Source: Deltaproteobacteria bacterium
GTDB taxonomy: Bacteria; Desulfobacterota; Desulfobaccia; Desulfobaccales; 0-14-0-80-60-11
DNA length: 64,000 bases
Direction of reading: 5' to 3'
Assembly: GCA_003599195.1 (NCBI GenBank)
Contig: QZIZ01000019.1
Coordinates: 14,188-78,187, forward strand
Below the pieces are notes generated by a model. The model did no database searches and was not told where the DNA came from. It saw only the letters and a list, made by a program, of their open reading frames with translations. A program made the position numbers and the translations under genes. Each line of letters opens with the position of its first letter. Within the stretch, counting starts at the first letter, position 1. This document shows positions 1,417-11,412 of this stretch, one piece after another.

Positions 1417-2376
1417 GTGTCTGAAAATGTTTTCGATCTAATCATCGTGGGCGCCGGTCCCGGAGGGCTGACCGCCGGGATTTACGCCATGCGCGCGGCG
1501 CTGAAGACCGTCCTCATTGAAAAAGGGATTGCCGGCGGCCAGATCAACCTCACGGAATCGGTGGAGAACTATCCCGGATTCGAGAACATCAGCGGCTTCG
1601 ACCTGTCTCAGAAGTTCATGCAGCACGCCCAATCTTACGGTCTGGAAGTGGTCCAGCAGGAAGTGGCGGCCGTGGAGCCGGGGCTGGAGTTCCATGCCGT
1701 GCGTCTGGCCAACGGCGAGTTGCTCAAGACCCATGCCGTTATTTTGGCTACGGGCGGCAGCCCCAGGAAGCTCGGCGTCCCCGGGGAACTGGAATACTAC
1801 GGCAAGGGAGTCTCTTACTGCGCCACCTGCGACGGCTTTTTCTTCCGGGGTAAAAACGTCATCGTGGTGGGCGGCGGCGACAGCGCCCTGGAAGAGGCCC
1901 TTTATCTCGCCAAAATCACCTGCCGGGTTTACCTGGCCCACCGCCGGGACGCGTTCCGGGGCAGCCGGATTTTGCAGGAACGGGTCCTGGCTGATGAGAA
2001 AATCGAGGTCTTGTGGAACACCGTCGTCACCGAAGTGAAGGCCGATGGCCAGGGCGTCCACGCGGTGGCGCTTAAGGATACAAAGACCGGGGCCGCCCGG
2101 GAACTGGCCGTGGACGGCGTGTTCGTCTTCATCGGCTTCAGTCCCAATAACCGGTTGGTCCCCGCCGGAACCAGGATGGACCATGACGGCTACGTGATGG
2201 CCGACGAGAAGTGCGAGACCAATATCCCGGGAATCTTTGTCATCGGCGACTTGAGGCAAAAATACGCCAAACAGATCGTCACTGCGGCCGCGGACGGCTG
2301 CACCGCGGCCCTGGCCGCGGCTTTATGCGTGGAAATGAAAAAAGCGGGGCAGGCCTGCCCGGCCCACCGGGGATAA
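1417..2376 (+). CDS. trxB: Thioredoxin-disulfide reductase
   Basis: GAGPGG FAD motif, CATCDG active site, GGGDSA NADPH motif; GTG start after AGGAG. Confidence 0.95.
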   Translation: MSENVFDLIIVGAGPGGLTAGIYAMRAALKTVLIEKGIAGGQINLTESVENYPGFENISGFDLSQKFMQHAQSYGLEVVQQEVAAVEPGLEFHAVRLANGELLKTHAVILATGGSPRKLGVPGELEYYGKGVSYCATCDGFFFRGKNVIVVGGGDSALEEALYLAKITCRVYLAHRRDAFRGSRILQERVLADEKIEVLWNTVVTEVKADGQGVHAVALKDTKTGAARELAVDGVFVFIGFSPNNRLVPAGTRMDHDGYVMADEKCETNIPGIFVIGDLRQKYAKQIVTAAADGCTAALAAALCVEMKKAGQACPAHRG

Positions 2377-2442
2377 GACGGGCGGATGAAGACCCCGGCG
2401 CCGGAAAAGACCGCCCATACCACAGAGAACCGCGAGGAAGCA

Positions 2443-2751
2443 ATGCCCCTGGAAGATTATCTGCAGACGGTTGCTTTTGTAGCCAAGAGCATGTCGGATG
2501 AAAACCGGCTGCGGATTCTCTTGTGCGTCAATAACGGCAAGAAATCCGTCAACAGCATTGTGGAAGAACTGAGCCTGTCCCAGCCCCTGGTTTCCCATCA
2601 CCTGAAAGAACTGCGGCGTTCGCTGCTGGTGAAGGTGGAGCGCAGCGGCCCCTTCGTGTACTACGAGATTGCGGACCCCAGAATTCCCAAGATTCTGAAA
2701 GATTTGAAAGACCTGGCCACGGATTTGCTGGCCAGGAGAAAGACTTTTTAA
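2443..2751 (+). CDS. ArsR/SmtB family transcriptional regulator
   Basis: SDENRLRIL...LSQPLVSHHLKELR HTH; GAGGA RBS before ATG 2443 (alternative start 2386). Confidence 0.9.
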   Translation: MPLEDYLQTVAFVAKSMSDENRLRILLCVNNGKKSVNSIVEELSLSQPLVSHHLKELRRSLLVKVERSGPFVYYEIADPRIPKILKDLKDLATDLLARRKTF

Positions 2752-2772
2752 CCGGAGGAGGTGATTCATCAT

Positions 2773-3225
2773 ATGGCGGGAATTACCAAGATACTGGAGG
2801 GCATGGCCCCATCCCAAGCTTTGTCCGAAATCGGCGGGGCGCTGAAAAAAATTCTGCCTCTGGTCACCGAGGAAGATCGGCTGAACTTTGTCGTGCAGTT
2901 GCTCGGCGGCGCCGGCGACGACAAGGTGGCCAGTATGGTGCACCTCTGACTGGCGGAATGCCTGGACGAAGGTGTCGATCCAACGCATATGTGTCAAAAG
3001 CTGGTGGACCGGGTGTCGCAGTCCAAGCAGCTCATGGCCGTGGCCGATCCGGAGTTGCTGGCGCTGTTCGAGGACTGGCTGGATGAGCTGGAGGATGAAG
3101 TGATCGCCCTGGCCCGGGAGAAAGGGGGCCTCACCCCCGAAAACCTGGCCGCTAAATTCGGCCTCTCCCGGCGAGGGGCCACCTTTCTGATTACGAAATT
3201 AAAGAGAGAAGGAAAACTGTCTTAG
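2773..3225 (+). CDS. tsoA: Selenoprotein with LULAEC motif (TsoA-like), Sec at TGA 2947-2949, C-terminal HTH-like segment
   Basis: ORFs 2761-2949 and 2989-3225 are in one frame joined across TGA (H-L-U-L-A-E-C); downstream hairpin; family name recalled from NCBIfam, needs checking. Confidence 0.85.
2958..2988 (+). promoter_or_regulatory. Candidate bacterial SECIS element
   Basis: ATGC-c-TGGA-CGA-[AGGTG]-TCG-a-TCCA-ac-GCAT, loop GG at +22/23 from TGA. Confidence 0.7.
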
Positions 3226-3235
3226 AGGCATTAAG

Positions 3236-4978
3236 ATGATGACGGACAGAAAAAGAACCTTATTATTGGCTTTAATGGCTGCGGTCCTGACCCTGGGCGC
3301 GCTCTGGTATGTCCACCGCCCGGTGGCCGTCCAGGACGCCACCATGGAGGACGTCCGGGTCGAGGCCGCCAGGGGCGGCTATCGCCTGATTAATACCGAG
3401 GACTTGGCAAAGCTTTATCAACAGCCTCCCGCCAACCTGCTCATCGTGGACACCCGCCAGGATTGGGAGTACCGCAGCGGCCATATCAAAGGCGCGGTGG
3501 ATTTCCCCCTGGAACCCGGCTGGTGGTCCCGGTGGCGCTCCCAGGGCCGCCTGAAGGCCTTGCTGGGGCCGGACAAAGACCGGCTGGTAGTCTTTTACTG
3601 AGCGGGCCTGGCCTGAGTCCGCAGCGACTCCGCGGCCCGGGTGGCCGTCGACCTTGGCTATAAAAATGTTTATCGGGACCCCCTGGGTTTCCCGGAATGG
3701 CAGAAAGCCGGCCTGCCCGTGGCCGGCGATCCCTTGGGACTGTGTGATTACGCGCCGGAGGCTTACTCTCCCGGTGTCCTCTCCGGTTGGGCTTTAGTCT
3801 GGACCATGCTGGGCATCTTCTTCGGCGGTATGGCCCTCAACCTTACTCCTTGCGTCTATCCCATCATCCCCATCACCGTTTCGTACTTCGGCGGGCGCAG
3901 CGGCCAGGGCCGGGGACGCCTGGTGATCCACGGCCTCCTGTACGTGGCGGGCCTGGCCGTCACCAACTCCGCGTTGGGGGTAATTGCGGCTTTCACCGGC
4001 GGCCTCATGGGAGCCATACTGCAAAATCCCCTGGTGCTGCTGACGGTGGCCGCAGTCCTGGTCATCTTTGCCACCAGTCTTTTCGGGTTCTGGGAACTGC
4101 GCCTCCCCGGCAGCCTGACCCAGGCCGCGTCCAGGTCCTATGCCGGCTATGGCGGCAGCCTGTTCATGGGTCTGACTTTGGGAGTGGTGGCCGCGCCCTG
4201 CATCGGCCCGTTTGTGTTAGGACTCTTGACCTGGGTGGCCTCCATAGGCTCGCCCTGGCTGGGTTTCCTGGTGTTTTTCACATTGAGCCTGGGACTGGGA
4301 CTGCCCCTGTTTTTCCTGGCCATCTTCTCCGGCAGCCTGGAGAAACTGCCCCGGTCCGGGGAGTGGATGCTTTGGGTGCGGAAACTCATGGGCTGGGTGC
4401 TCATCGGCATGGCCGCCTATTTTCTGCGGCCGCTGCTTTCCGAGACCCTGAGCGTATTCCTGCTGGCCGCGGCGGCCCTGGCCGCGGCGGTGCACCTGGG
4501 ATGGCTGGACCGCACCACCGCGGCTTTCCGGAGTTTCCGGTGGCTCAAGACCGTCACCGCCTTGGCGGGAGTGGTAGCCGCCACCTTTCTGGTGGGGTCC
4601 TGGGCCTTCCGTGGTCCGGGGGTAACCTGGCAGCCTTATTCGGACCAGCTCTTAAGGACGGCGAAACATGAGAAAAAACCGGTAATTATCGACTTTTACG
4701 CCACCTGGTGCAGCCCCTGCCGGGAGCTGGAGGAAATCACCTTCCACCACCCGGAGGTGGTGAAACAGGCTGCCGCGGATTTCCTTGCGGTCAAGGTGGA
4801 CCTGACCCAGAAAGGCAACCCCTTGCACACCCGGCTGTTGGAGCAATACGGGGTCAAAGGAGTGCCCACTGTGGTTTTCCTGGATGGTCAGGGCAATGAA
4901 TGCCGGAACCTGCGCCTGGTGGATTATCTGCCGCCGGAGCAGTTCCTCTCCCGTATGGCCAAGGCCATGAAGAAATAA
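3236..4978 (+). CDS. tsoB: Rhodanese-DsbD(beta)-thioredoxin fusion selenoprotein (TsoB-like), Sec at TGA 3599-3601 and 3614-3616
   Basis: Reads VVFY-U-AGLA-U-VRSDSAARVAVDLGYKNV...GFPEWQKAGLP, completing the rhodanese fold; then LTPCVYP/APCIGP (DsbD transmembrane Cys pair) and WCSPC; 580 aa. Confidence 0.9.
3625..3650 (+). promoter_or_regulatory. Candidate SECIS downstream of the U-x4-U motif
   Basis: GCGGCC-[CGGGT]-GGCCGT stem-loop, loop at about +22 to +26 from the second TGA. Confidence 0.6.
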
Positions 4979-4997
4979 AAGCGGTTGGAGAATTGAT

Positions 4998-5279
4998 ATG
5001 CTTAAAATTAAAGCCTTGATGAACGATCCCTGCGGCCTGACCTGAAAGCGCCTCCACGAGATCATGCCCAGGTTGGGCAAGAAATACGAGTTGGAAGTGG
5101 AGGAGATTTCCCGGTCCAGGGAGGAATACCAGAGCGAAGCCTACCGGGCCGCGGGCCTGCCCCCGGCCCCCGCGGTGCTGGTGGAAGATGAAGTTGCAGG
5201 CCAGGGACCCGGCATTTCCGAAGAAGGCGTGGAAGCGGTGATCCGCCGGCATTTGGGACTGCCGCCCCTGAAGTCCTAA
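4998..5279 (+). CDS. tsoC: Thioredoxin-fold selenoprotein (TsoC-like paralog 1), NDPCGLTU motif, Sec16 at TGA 5043-5045
   Basis: GGAG RBS + ATG 4998, in frame with ORF 5064-5279; hairpin TGCCCA-GGT-TGGGCA 5065-5079; APA cis-Pro-like motif. Confidence 0.85.
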
Positions 5280-5311
5280 AAATCGCACAATCCAAAAATT
5301 GGAGGACAAGA

Positions 5312-5629
5312 ATGCTCAAAGTCAGATGCTTTTACAACGAGCCTAACGGCAAACCCTGAAAGCATTTCCAGGAAATGATGCCCAGGTTGGGCCAAAAATA
5401 TCCCATCGACATCAAAATTACTTCCAAACCCATTGCCGAATACCAAACGGATGAATATTTTGAGTTAGACCTCCCCGCGGCCCCGGCCATCATGGTGGGC
5501 GACGAGATCGTGGTGGAAGGCACGGATGTAGCCGAACTCAAATTGGAAACCGTCATCTGCCGGCATCTGGGGCTGCCCGAGCCGGAGCCGCCCAAGAAAG
5601 GCTTCCTGGGGCGGCTGTTTGGCAAATAG
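5312..5629 (+). CDS. tsoC: Thioredoxin-fold selenoprotein (TsoC-like paralog 2), NEPNGKPU motif, Sec16 at TGA 5357-5359
   Basis: GGAGG RBS + ATG 5312, in frame with ORF 5375-5629; TGA aligned with paralog; hairpin GCCCA-GGT-TGGGC 5380-5392. Confidence 0.88.
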
Positions 5630-5719
5630 ACCCGCAGGGGGTGAAGGCAGATTCGCCCCCCCAGGTTTGGAAAAGATAAGGCGCAGCGTCAGCAACCCGC
5701 TGCCGCCCAAGAGGTAGCC

Positions 5720-6418
5720 ATGCAGACGGAAAGATTCCGGCGGGGGGCCTTGATCAAGGCCGTGATCCTCATTCTGTTCGTGGCCGCCGCGGTGGTGACG
5801 GTCCGCACTCCCGCGGTCAAGGAGGCGCTGACCGCAGAAAAGCTGGGCGCCATGCTGGCGGCCGCGGGCGCCTGGGCCCCTGTGGCCTTTATTGTGTTTT
5901 ACGCCGTAGGGGTCTGCCTGTTCATCCCCGGGACTTTGCTCACCGCGCTGGGGGCCGCCATCTTCGGGGCCTATTGGGGGTTTGTCTACGTCTGGGTGGC
6001 CGCCATGCTGGGGGCCGCAGGGGCCTTTCTCATCGGCAGGTACCTGGGGCGGGAGTTCGCGGCTGCCCTCATCGGCGAGCGGCTGAAGAAGTATGACGAC
6101 GCCATCGAGCGCAACGGCTTCGCCACCGTGCTCTACTTACGGTTGGTTTATTTCCCCTTTACCCCCATGAACTTCGGCATGGGGCTGACCAAAGTGCGCT
6201 TTAAGGATTACCTCTGGGGCACGGGGCTGGGGATCTTGGCGGGCACCTTCATCTTCACCTTCTTTGTGGGCACCGTCAAGGAGGTCTGGGCCAGCGGCCA
6301 ATGGGCCAACCTCCTCACCTGGCAAGTATTTTTTTCCCTGGGACTCTTTGTTTTTTCCCTCTTTATTCCCAAGATCATCGATAAGCTGAAGGTCTGGAAA
6401 GGGATCAAGCCTGTTTAA
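5720..6418 (+). CDS. TVP38/TMEM64 (DedA superfamily) membrane protein
   Basis: PGTLLTALGAAIFG, F-x-IGRYLGR, LRLVYFPF...GLT motifs; hydrophobic. Confidence 0.9.
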   Translation: MQTERFRRGALIKAVILILFVAAAVVTVRTPAVKEALTAEKLGAMLAAAGAWAPVAFIVFYAVGVCLFIPGTLLTALGAAIFGAYWGFVYVWVAAMLGAAGAFLIGRYLGREFAAALIGERLKKYDDAIERNGFATVLYLRLVYFPFTPMNFGMGLTKVRFKDYLWGTGLGILAGTFIFTFFVGTVKEVWASGQWANLLTWQVFFSLGLFVFSLFIPKIIDKLKVWKGIKPV

Positions 6419-7041
6419 ACCTTTTCTCCGGCGATAACCACGAAAACCCCTTGGCCATGGCCGCTCTTCACCGGTTCCGGCGCCGTAATCGCCGCCGGGT
6501 CTTGAAAAATGGTCTGGCAAGTCTGAATGTTCAGATAATTCAGCTCAACCAGCCATTTCAGGACCCGGCCCACCGGCTGGAACCTCGCCTGGCGGTAAAA
6601 TTTACTCTTTTCCCGGTTGGCCTCATATAATTTCCCCAAAGGGCTCTCCGGATCGATCATGCCGATGATCAGCCGTCCTTGGGGTTTAAGGACCCGGGTC
6701 GCCTCTTCAAGAGCGCGGCCAGGGTCTTTCAGGAAGCACAGGACGGTGACCATCAGAATAAAATCAAAAGATTCATCTTTGAAAGGAAGTTCTTCCCCGT
6801 AAGCCTCGTGGACCTCGATCCCCCGTTTTCCGGCGATCTCGGCCATGGCCCGGGCGGGCTCCACCCCCACTTCGATCCCCAGGGCCGCGGCAAACCTGCC
6901 GGTCCCCACCCCGATTTCCAGCCCCCGGCCTGCTTGCGGCATAAAGGCTTTGATGGCCGCCAGTTCGGAGCGGAAGGCGATCTCATGGCGGACAAACCAA
7001 TCATCGTATTCCTGGGCCGCTTCTTCAAAAACATCGGTCAT
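6415..7041 (-). CDS. Class I SAM-dependent methyltransferase
   Basis: GLEIGVGTGRFA motif I, LPFKDESFD, RVLKPQG; start moved to 7041 (GGAGG upstream); 4-nt TTAA convergent overlap with TVP38 gene. Confidence 0.9.
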   Translation of the reverse strand: MTDVFEEAAQEYDDWFVRHEIAFRSELAAIKAFMPQAGRGLEIGVGTGRFAAALGIEVGVEPARAMAEIAGKRGIEVHEAYGEELPFKDESFDFILMVTVLCFLKDPGRALEEATRVLKPQGRLIIGMIDPESPLGKLYEANREKSKFYRQARFQPVGRVLKWLVELNYLNIQTCQTIFQDPAAITAPEPVKSGHGQGVFVVIAGEKV

Positions 7042-7073: not shown

Positions 7074-7580
7074 TTACTGTGACATTATAACTCCGGTAAC
7101 CAGCAATACCGCCAGCCCCAGAACTAAATTTACTTTTACCAGATTTAATGACAACTTTTGCAGCCCGGCGACCCGGGAGGATAAAGCAGGCGTCCCCTCG
7201 GCCTGGGCGGCCAATCTCCCGATTTTGGGAGCCAATAACCATCCCCGGTAAAAATGGATAACCACCATCACGAGTACCAGGAGGTGTTTCACGCCCATTA
7301 CGGGGGTCCAATGATTATAAAATTCCAGGGGATTGGCCATATCTTTGCCGTAATGGCCGAGGATCGGACCGGTGATAATCAATACTACGATACTGGCGTT
7401 AACCATGGGGGTCAAACGCCTGGTTATCTCTTTCATCAGTTTGCCGGTCAAAGGCGGTGATTCCAAAGAGGTCCTGGCCCCGGGCAGTATCACCAAAAGG
7501 ACCATAAAGATGCCGCCGATCCAGACCACGGTGGCCAATAAATGGAGAAAGTGGCTTAAACTCAAAATCAGCAAATTCAT
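7074..7580 (-). CDS. CopD/DUF4149-like four-helix membrane protein
   Basis: SHFLHLLATVVWIGG motif, 4 hydrophobic segments. Confidence 0.75.
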   Translation of the reverse strand: MNLLILSLSHFLHLLATVVWIGGIFMVLLVILPGARTSLESPPLTGKLMKEITRRLTPMVNASIVVLIITGPILGHYGKDMANPLEFYNHWTPVMGVKHLLVLVMVVIHFYRGWLLAPKIGRLAAQAEGTPALSSRVAGLQKLSLNLVKVNLVLGLAVLLVTGVIMSQ

Positions 7581-7628
7581 CGCGGGTCTCCCATACAAGG
7601 CGTCATAAGTAATTGCACATCCTGAATC

Positions 7629-7690
7629 CCTGCGCTCTCTGCTCTCTGCGTTAAAAAGATTCACCGCAGAGACGCAGAGGACGCAGAGAA
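7629..7690. repeat. Inverted CGCAGAGA-type short-repeat element
   Basis: CTCTGCTCTCTGCG ... CGCAGAGACGCAGAGGACGCAGAGA. Confidence 0.7.
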
Positions 7691-7940: not shown

Positions 7941-8315
7941 TCAGAAAGTCATTACCGCGTCAGACTCAACGACCATGCTATTCAGGGTCGGAGCACAGAC
8001 TATTTTGGCCCCCTCTATGAAACCTTTTTCGAGATCGATTCCCAGCATGCGCGCGCTCTCCTCGCATACCAGAAACGAGACGCCCGCCTCCGCAGCCTGC
8101 ACGATCGCATCTTTCAGACATCCGAAAGGCTGCGGCAACGTAATCTTCTCGGCCTGCCCTTTTTGGAGAACCGTCACCCCCTTTATTCCAAAAAAAATGG
8201 AAGCGTCCATATCCATTGCCTTGGCCGTGGCGCCAAGGATAAAAGGAGCGTAGGTGCGCTCCGGGGTTTCCACACCGCTGGTTTGAATGTAGAGGACTTT
8301 CTTTCTTGCACTCAT
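7941..8315 (-). CDS. DsrE/DsrF-like sulfur-relay/peroxiredoxin family protein
   Basis: IFFGIKGVTVL, AGVSFLVCEES, DAVMTF C-terminus. Confidence 0.85.
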   Translation of the reverse strand: MSARKKVLYIQTSGVETPERTYAPFILGATAKAMDMDASIFFGIKGVTVLQKGQAEKITLPQPFGCLKDAIVQAAEAGVSFLVCEESARMLGIDLEKGFIEGAKIVCAPTLNSMVVESDAVMTF

Positions 8316-8632: not shown

Positions 8633-9037
8633 TTATTTGGATTTTTCCTTGATCCGCTGCCGCACCGCGTTCAGCTCCTCCTGGAGGTCCTTCTCATATT
8701 GTTTCAGGGCCTCCACGTCCGAACTCTCGAATTCCTGTTCCCGCCATTTCATGGTGCCCCGGCAGCCGCAACTGCAGACTTCCGTCAACTGGCGCCGGTA
8801 TTTCTCCAGGGCCTCCTCGTTAATGGAGTAGGGAATCCAGTACCCCTGCCTTTCGCTCCGCACCAGCCCGGCCTGCCGCAGGATCTTGAGATGCTGGGAG
8901 GCCGCGGCTGCGGTGATCCCCAACTGCCGGGCGATCTCCTTGGCCCCCAGGGGCCCCTGGGCCTTCATCAGATCAAGTATCCTGACCCGGGTCTCCACGG
9001 CCAGGACCTTGAACATTTCGGAGACTTCCAATTCCAT
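8633..9037 (-). CDS. ArsR family regulator with C-terminal CSCGC and coiled-coil extension
   Basis: FKVLAVETRVRIL...AASQHLKILRQAGLV HTH. Confidence 0.9.
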   Translation of the reverse strand: MELEVSEMFKVLAVETRVRILDLMKAQGPLGAKEIARQLGITAAAASQHLKILRQAGLVRSERQGYWIPYSINEEALEKYRRQLTEVCSCGCRGTMKWREQEFESSDVEALKQYEKDLQEELNAVRQRIKEKSK

Positions 9038-10557: not shown

Positions 10558-11412
10558 TTATTGCTTAGGCGCTCACGCTCCGCCCGGAGCGCACTCCACC
10601 ACTTTAGGCTCCTCCACTTGGACCGCCTGGGTGGCGATCATCGCCTGCGCCCGCGCATCCACCAGTTTTTCCCCGTAAAACATGGCCCCTTCGGTGTAGG
10701 GAGAGGTCTTGAAGCCGGTGTAGGCCCTCAGGCCCGCCCGGTGGAAGCCCGCTTTCAGCAGCAGCGCCAGGAAGTCCCTTCCCGGCAGGGCGCCGCCGAT
10801 TCACTGGTACCAGTTTTCAATCTTCCCCGCCTTATCCGGGGGGAGTTCCGCCACCAGCACCATGTCCGCCAACATGAGGCGGCCCCCGGGCTTCAGCACC
10901 CGGTGGGCCTCTAACAAAGCCTTTTCCTTGTCCAGGGTAAGGTTAAAGACGCCGTTGGAGATGACTGCGTCGAACTCGTTATCCGGGAAAGGCAGGGATT
11001 CGGCCTCCGCCAACTGAAAAGTGACATTTGTTAGGCCCAGGACAGAGAGGTTGGCTTTAGCCTTGTCTATCATGGCCTGGGTCACGTCAACGCCCGCCAC
11101 CCGGCCCTCCGGCCCCGCCATCTTCGCCGCCAGAAGCGAGTCCAGCCCCGCGCCGCAGCCGATGTCCAGGACTGCGTCCCCGGGGTGGATAGGCCCCAGG
11201 CTGAAGGGGTTGCCCACCCCGCAGAAGGAGTCGATAAGGGCGGCCGGAAAATCCCGGAGCAGGTCCAGGGGGTAACCCTGCTGCTTCAGCCCTTCCAGGC
11301 CGGTGGGGTACCTGAAGCATGAAGCCGCGCCCGCGGCCGCCACCTGGGAGTATTTGCTCTTGATGCTCTCCCGGATCAGGGTGATATCTTTTTCGGTCAG
11401 ATTAGATTCCAT
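10558..11412 (-). CDS. ArsM-like SAM methyltransferase selenoprotein; Sec204 at TGA 10803-10801; second TGA 10575-10573 is a stop or a second Sec
   Basis: SFCGVGNP, VLDIGCGAG, ISNGVFNL; read-through gives NWYQ-U-IGGALPGRDFLALLLKAGF, matching ArsM W-x-x-C-I-x-GAL; hairpin GCCGGGAAG-GGA-CTTCCTGGC with loop at +24. Confidence 0.85.

Follow-up and report, generated by a model that had tools for sequence, protein, structure and literature searches.

A tandem pair of predicted TsoC selenoproteins and a conserved Cys-bearing clade of upstream paralogs in the tso operon

Two adjacent genes of the 64,000-nucleotide stretch of DNA analysed here (the window) are, taken as a whole, probably best explained as a selenocysteine-decoded pair of thioredoxin-fold TsoC proteins in a tso operon, the upstream copy belonging to a separate, Cys-bearing clade. 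Both reading frames begin with MLK and have TGA as codon 16, as the original prediction had stated and as translation confirms (Table 1): with TGA translated as U, the N-terminus is MLKIKALMNDPCGLTU in tsoC1 and MLKVRCFYNEPNGKPU in tsoC2, and the motifs given for the two, C-G-L-T-U and N-G-K-P-U, were found as described. The tsoC1 gene starts 19 nt after the stop codon of the upstream gene, and tsoC2 follows it after a further 32 nt.

Table 1. Positions of the tsoC pair, its translation signals and its neighbours in the window
Feature	Position	Strand	Description
Thioredoxin-disulfide reductase gene	1417-2376	+	5' of tsoR; TIGR01292, 375 bits
tsoR	2386-2751	+	ArsR/SmtB-type regulator; NF045707, 164.1 bits (cut-off 115)
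tsoA	2761-3225	+	LULAXC-motif selenoprotein, one TGA; NF045695, 221.5 bits (cut-off 170)
tsoB	3236-4978	+	NF045694, 1014 bits (cut-off 805)
Shine-Dalgarno GGAG	4987-4990	+	7 nt 5' of the tsoC1 ATG; read from the sequence
tsoC1	4998-5279	+	93 codons; TsoC paralog; motif N-D-P-C-G-L-T-U; without C-terminal tail
TGA, codon 16 of tsoC1, read as selenocysteine	5043-5045	+	Codons 1-15 under purifying selection
SECIS core hairpin of tsoC1 (putative)	5066-5078	+	GCCCA / GGU / UGGGC; encodes P24-R25-L26-G27
Shine-Dalgarno GGAGG	5301-5305	+	6 nt 5' of the tsoC2 ATG; read from the sequence
tsoC2	5312-5629	+	105 codons; canonical TsoC; motif N-E-P-N-G-K-P-U; C-terminal KKGFLGRLFGK tail
TGA, codon 16 of tsoC2, read as selenocysteine	5357-5359	+	Codons 1-15 under purifying selection
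SECIS core hairpin of tsoC2 (putative)	5380-5392	+	Sequence identical to the tsoC1 hairpin
VTT-domain (DedA/TVP38-like) membrane protein	5720-6418	+	3' of tsoC2; PF09335, 85 bits
CopD-like membrane protein	7074-7664	-	Downstream of the tso operon
DsrE-like protein	7941-8315	-	Downstream of the tso operon
Second ArsR-family regulator	8633-9037	-	C-terminal C-x-C-G-C motif
Arsenite-methyltransferase-like gene	10558-11412	-	NF047649, 530.5 bits (cut-off 460)

Both products match the NCBIfam model NF045708 ("NEPxGxxU motif selenoprotein TsoC"; cut-off 45 bits), tsoC1 with 112.9 and tsoC2 with 147.9 bits, and the six-frame search of the genome with the same model yielded 104.9 and 140.6 bits. The NEPxGxxU motif takes the form NEPNGKPU in tsoC2, and tsoC1 with NDPCGLTU keeps G-x-x-U but replaces Glu by Asp; a sister form, NEPCGKPU (genomes G051, G418, G420 and G425), bridges the two. 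The TsoC family and the Tso operon have already been named: TsoA, TsoB, TsoC, TsoX and TsoY appear as "Tso (three selenoprotein operon)", credited to Haft and Tolstoy 2025 (mSystems 10:e0141724, as cited and tabulated in PMC13188914). The original description of the genes as Sec16 thioredoxin-like paralogs thus stands as regards Sec16 and the fold, but it missed their membership of this named family and operon. Pfam contains no family for tsoC1 or tsoC2, no thioredoxin model (PF00085 and relatives) matches them at E up to 1, and the thioredoxin models of NCBIfam do not match TsoC either. Apart from scoring above the cut-off, both genes share with TsoC a single Sec in G-x-x-U, the length class, the place after tsoB and the same hairpin; tsoC1 differs from it in having Asp for Glu and an added Cys, in forming a clade of its own and in lacking Cys83 and the KKGxLGRLFGK tail.

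Judging by gene order and model matches, tsoC1 and tsoC2 close a canonical tsoR-tsoA-tsoB-tsoC operon, and this order is kept in 13 of 16 longer loci. The domains of TsoB are a signal anchor, a rhodanese, a DsbD membrane domain and a thioredoxin domain (WCSPC), and two in-frame TGA codons lie five residues apart in its rhodanese active-site loop (VVFY-U-AGLA-U-VRS; Y-U-A-G-L-A-U). Of 35 short loci, 27 have TsoB upstream of tsoC and 20 have the VTT gene downstream of it, three of the latter at merely 31-35% identity. Coupling to TrxB, suggested earlier, has become weak, as the thioredoxin reductase gene adjoins the operon here but does so in just one of 16 other loci. Some genomes of the host's bacterial family contain two complete tso operons (G051, at loci L040 and L097; G420, at L058), and in G420 the short and the long Cys-bearing forms of TsoC occur in side-by-side operons.

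AlphaFold2 models, built from alignments of 38 and 48 rows, reached pLDDT of 92.5 for tsoC2 and 92.8 for tsoC1, and show a minimal thioredoxin fold in both proteins, which are predicted to be cytoplasmic. The secondary structure is the same in the two models (strands at 2-10, 32-40, 59-62 and 65-69, helices at 14-29 and 75-86, and short helices that follow the strand at 32-40), giving the topology beta-alpha-beta-alpha-beta-beta-alpha; the conserved Pro before strand 3 (P58) is invariant. The tail of tsoC2 (residues ~88-105) is modelled with low confidence and contains a short helix at 99-103. In the structure search (Foldseek and VIA-align), thioredoxins were returned with Z up to 9.7 over 81 residues (rmsd 2.6), in agreement with the thioredoxin-like character that had been proposed and for which structure prediction had been recommended. 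SelW-related proteins were also returned, with Z of 8.7-9.1, including 2obk, a "putative Se binding protein" (Z 8.9). The sequence search of solved structures gave a ribosomal protein as its best match, at E 0.054.

In the models helix 1 has Sec16 as its third residue, in the first turn, and Cys12 of tsoC1 lies in the loop just before this helix. In the alignment with PDI A4 (E 0.5) the two Cys of CxxC fall opposite Gly13 and Sec16, in this order, and the same register was obtained with the thioredoxin domain of TsoB (hhalign probability 0.4%). As both alignments are statistically poor, the assignment of Sec to the second-Cys position of CxxC is likely, not secure; it implies a single-selenol site, GxxU, as the canonical motif. 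With thioredoxins and glutaredoxins TsoC shares the order of strands and helices, the active residue where helix 1 begins and the Pro before strand 3, but the first Cys of their CxxC is Gly in TsoC, and the CxxxU of tsoC1 is one residue longer than CxxC. PDB entry 1tho, whose title describes a thioredoxin carrying an inserted active-site residue, was matched with Z 8.8. The bacterial SelW/Rdx-like proteins (2p0g, 2fa8, 2obk; Z 8.7-9.1), characterized by a CxxU motif, have a minimal thioredoxin-like fold of ~85 residues, and their Sec or Cys, as in TsoC, lies where helix 1 begins; they differ from it in that no sequence model connects them and that TsoC has the longer loop ahead of the helix.

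A dithiol-like as opposed to a single-selenol reading of the two copies is plausible. The canonical TsoC would be a monothiol redoxin or a carrier whose selenol becomes linked to a partner through a mixed Se-S (or Se-metalloid) bond and is freed by an outside thiol, and the C-G-x-T-U copy would resolve the mixed bond itself via an internal selenenylsulfide, as a dithiol redoxin does. The likeliest partners would be the cytoplasmic face of the DsbD-type membrane domain of TsoB, or TsoA. The split of glutaredoxins into dithiol (CPYC) and monothiol (CGFS) forms is a functional analogy for such a pair. In most other bacterial families the operon contains only the single-selenol copy, so its core function does not depend on an internal resolving Cys. 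We propose this division between a monothiol-like canonical copy and a self-resolving one tentatively, as a possibility with slightly less than even chances.

Given the ArsR-type regulators and the metalloid-gene neighbours, a role in metal or metalloid handling fits equally well as a redox one. In the corresponding explanation, both TsoC copies would bind or carry a soft metal, metalloid or chalcogen (As, Hg, Te, Se or persulfide) and not electrons: the selenol of TsoC2 would hold the ligand by one bond, TsoC1 would chelate it by two, through C12 and U16, and the ligand would be passed between TsoA, TsoB and the VTT membrane protein. The operon is indeed headed by an ArsR/SmtB metalloregulator, and a second ArsR, that with the C-x-C-G-C motif in Table 1, has counterparts between the tsoC copies in 14 genomes. 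Consistent with the same explanation are the CopD-like and DsrE-like neighbours and the arsenite-methyltransferase-like gene, itself a "methyltransferase/UXPK-star double selenoprotein" with two in-frame TGA (WYQ-U-IGG, GGA-U-APKQ), as well as the rhodanese of TsoB, a sulfur/selenium transfer domain, and the retrieval of 2obk and the SelW-related proteins by the structure search. However, no metal-binding family model of Pfam or NCBIfam matches TsoC, its fold and Sec position are those of redox-active thioredoxin-fold proteins, and an ArsR regulator is no proof of a metal; regulators of this family also sense persulfide or sulfite. We therefore regard a carrier function of both copies as somewhat unlikely.

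The arrangement of genes in relatives bears on how the work might be shared. Homologs of the second ArsR, 69-86% identical to it, separate the two tsoC copies in 14 of 29 pairs (loci L012, L046, L048, L049, L051, L052, L054, L055, L058, L061-L063, L065 and L066); they lie on the opposite strand and so divide the pair into two transcription units. In these 14 split genomes the Cys-bearing copy ends the tsoA-tsoB unit; the canonical copy is the first gene of a separate unit, in which the VTT gene usually comes next. The copies could also be non-redundant as specialised selenoproteins of two modules: TsoC1 (C-G-x-T-U, tailless) would form a selenenylsulfide and resolve itself as a partner of the TsoA/TsoB relay, and TsoC2 (G-x-x-U), with its basic amphipathic tail, would operate at the membrane together with the VTT/DedA-like protein, regulated by an ArsR of its own. 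We consider this specific partition unlikely. In G454 a CopD-like gene is also located between the two tsoC copies. In one of the 29 pairs (G446, L064:290-925, minus strand) tsoC1 continues in frame into tsoC2, uninterrupted by a stop codon; the product is possibly a 210-residue fusion with two Sec, or the arrangement may be an accident of assembly or mutation. The in-frame read-through hints that the two copies may act as a pair.

The occurrence of the Cys-bearing copy was followed through 69 genomes of the host's bacterial family, of which 46 have TsoC, the motifs being read at every two-match locus and at most single-copy loci. An intact close pair is present in 28 of the 46 (29 pairs, since G420 has two), a pair with a broken upstream copy in three (G434, G435, G445), two copies on different contigs in two, and one copy in 13 (one of them broken). 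Wherever the two copies form a pair, the Cys-bearing one is always 5' of the canonical one. The upstream copy is mostly short (87-95 residues) and tailless, with the motif N-[DE]-P-C-G-[LM]-T-U (24 of 29 pairs); four pairs have a long, tailed form of 106 residues with N-E-P-C-G-K-P-U, and the remaining one (G437) has N-E-P-G-G-N-R-U, also in 106 residues and with no Cys. Thus, the difference in redox motifs between the paralogs, for which a survey of homologs had been suggested, proved to be stable, Cys at position U-4 being kept in 28 of the 29 intact pairs, with Gly in G437 as the exception. No comparable pair was seen in other families of the phylum sample, most of which have a single TsoC of the single-selenol form. 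In G199 and G258 a second, different copy (N-E-P-N-G-K-S-U) is found on another contig.

In the maximum-likelihood tree of 38 proteins (the broken copy of G161 was left out, and the bootstrap was not fully settled), all Cys-bearing copies fall into one clade (bootstrap/aLRT 99/97), within which the long form is sister to the short CG[L/M]TU forms (100/100); the stem branch of the latter has length 0.73 and is followed by short branches. Most members of the clade have replaced K-P by L/M-T and Cys83 by Arg and have lost the basic amphipathic tail. These data fit a history of one duplication, followed by the acquisition of Cys at U-4, the loss of Cys83 (to Arg) and of the tail, and then conservation. 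Pairwise dN/dS ranges over 0.09-0.33 in the Cys-bearing clade and over 0.06-0.22 in the canonical copies of the same genomes. Tree and substitution rates together show the upstream copy as a monophyletic clade, with estimates indicating purifying selection, that among the genomes searched is confined to the host's family. A conserved Cys-bearing TsoC paralog of this kind may be new as a variant, albeit a modest one.

The cysteines of the canonical copies behave differently. Cys residues elsewhere in the second paralog had been pointed out, and tsoC2 does contain C6 and C83, but they are not conserved: canonical copies may have C6, C83, both, C56 (G148), or no Cys at all (G412, G439). C6 and C83 were rejected as candidates for a resolving cysteine, as they vary between lineages and are missing from some intact canonical copies.

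The upstream copy could also be a redundant duplicate with no separate function, Cys at U-4 being a neutral lineage marker. Most families of the phylum manage with a single copy, the upstream copy is broken in the three genomes named above, and the intact one of G437 has no Cys, all as expected under redundancy. Nevertheless, redundancy is improbable, since the low dN/dS of the clade extends across genera, the motif is retained in nearly all intact pairs, the clade is monophyletic with a long stem and short branches, the tsoC1 model is confident, and each copy has its own Shine-Dalgarno sequence, TGA and SECIS.

The reading of UGA-16 as a Sec codon is based on several comparisons. A survey of 401 genomes of the phylum gave 42 TsoC matches above the cut-off, spread over 31 genomes. 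A single in-frame TGA is present in 40 of these matches, and the remaining two are pieces of one broken, TGT-bearing copy. The stretch upstream of the TGA, whose conservation the original prediction had singled out as decisive, is conserved: in six genomes with both copies, mean pN of codons 1-15 is 0.146 against pS of 0.473 in the upstream copies and 0.066 against 0.528 in the canonical ones, pN being far below pS in both, and N9, P11 and G13 are invariant. A profile search of 1.84 billion representatives yielded 217 relatives, and about 70 of the 150 listed (counted by eye) begin at profile position 21-23, that is, they are genes called from Met22/23. Nineteen representatives that cover the N-terminus were fetched. 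Residue 16 is Cys in eight of these and Trp in four, the latter probably a TGA read as Trp by the source; four have C-x-x-S (Cys 13, Ser 16), and three look broken. The relatives with Cys for Sec are full length, and the CxxS relatives show positions 12-13 to be part of the predicted active site. The latter (P0002, P0008, P0014, P0016), in which C-x-x-S replaces G-x-x-U, have a long basic C-terminal extension, and P0008 is fused behind a methyltransferase-like domain.

Components of the Sec machinery were sought in the host genome, an 81% complete metagenome-assembled genome (MAG), and SelB (363 bits) and SelD (373 bits) were found. SelA was not found, and the best match to tRNA-Sec in the same MAG scored 42.9 bits, below the gathering score of 47 bits; at such completeness neither result is evidence of absence. 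The selD gene (contig C48:14800-15714, locus L010) has one in-frame TGA itself, and the selenophosphate synthetase of the host would thus be a selenoprotein. Taken with the hairpin described below, these comparisons show, as far as sequences can, that UGA-16 of both genes is recoded as selenocysteine with the aid of a hairpin inside the coding sequence.

This hairpin lies in the longest run of identity between the two genes, a shared 15-mer, ATGCCCAGGTTGGGC, at 5064-5078 in tsoC1 and 5378-5392 in tsoC2. Its arms are GCCCA/TGGGC, and in either gene the GGT loop begins 26 nt past the final base of the TGA; this common stem, the loop at +26 and the diverged flanks had been predicted correctly in every detail, the DNA of the two genes being 58% identical (177 of 303 aligned columns). 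When match and mismatch columns were shuffled, a run at least as long as the 15-mer appeared in 3,103 of 100,000 trials (p ~0.03), and the 15-base identity, judged from the pair alone, is only suggestive.

More can be learned from the 60 nt following TGA, taken with the TGA itself from 38 tsoC genes of 29 genomes (a very distant copy of G170 and two N-terminally incomplete matches were left out). The core G-C-C-C-A / G-G-Y / U-G-G-G-C occupies the same columns in nearly all 38 genes, and 92.8% of the cells pair; with the 3' partner shifted by 1-3 columns this falls to 30-51%. Because the same hairpin stands at the same distance in these genes, its identity within the tandem pair is a property of the whole TsoC family and not a trait of the pair. 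Gene conversion between the copies was considered as the source of the 15-mer and rejected, since single-copy genes across the phylum share the same bases.

The synonymous sites are the most telling, and bear out the earlier remark that the hairpin is kept even there. The Arg25 codon is AGG in 37 of 37 tsoC genes, although AGG accounts for 10.4% of the 1,045 Arg codons of the window (a rough reference set of 53 unfiltered window ORFs of at least 250 codons); for Arg5 in the same tsoC genes all six codons are used. Similarly, Pro24 is encoded by CCC in 34 of 37 genes, compared with 14 of 28 for Pro15. The invariant AGG implies selection beyond the protein level. Covariation is thin: one C-G pair is replaced by U-A, in two related genes, and a few pairs have become G-U. 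Single-sequence folds are no better than shuffles (z of -1.85 and +0.12), RNAalifold retained three pairs at -0.92 kcal/mol, and Rfam gave no matches at E up to 1 in the region 2300-6500 of the window. The synonymous sites are strong evidence for a SECIS, and the thermodynamic support is weak.

The bacterial SECIS of Zhang and Gladyshev is reportedly a hairpin that directly follows the UGA, its apical loop beginning with G residues and lying within ~16-37 nt of the UGA. As in the case of the E. coli fdhF-type SECIS, the tsoC hairpin is inside the coding sequence after the UGA, its loop starts with G, and SelB is present; it differs in being very short (a stem of merely 5-6 bp and a loop of 3 nt), with no conserved lower stem. 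Hairpins with G-rich loops also lie ~20-35 nt 3' of the other TGA codons of the window, those of TsoA, TsoB and the methyltransferase-like gene. We read the tsoC hairpin as a candidate short, SelB-binding SECIS that is family-wide. As the hairpin also spells the P-R-L-G of helix 1, RNA and protein constrain the same 13 bases.

It is extremely improbable that the TGA codons are true stops, with products starting at Met22/23 (5064, 5375) and the hairpin kept merely for the need of P-R-L-G: such starts agree with those ~70 of the 150 listed representatives, as public gene calls treat the genes, but codons 1-15 are under purifying selection with three invariant residues, a Shine-Dalgarno sequence precedes the upstream ATG alone (inspection found none in front of the internal ATGs), a start at Met22/23 would delete strand 1 and the active-site loop, AGG at Arg25 is invariant beyond any selection on the protein, and full-length relatives have Cys for Sec.

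In annotation, ordinary gene callers shorten both selenoproteins by 21-22 codons. The locus is moreover a clear case of a 13-base stretch that serves both as a SECIS and as a conserved peptide motif. Finally, the Tso system has so far been described by computation alone, and here nature provides a near-identical pair, differing mainly in one Cys near Sec and in the C-terminal tail, that amounts to a ready-made experiment: comparing tsoC1 with tsoC2 should separate a mixed Se-S bond released by an outside thiol from an internal selenenylsulfide.
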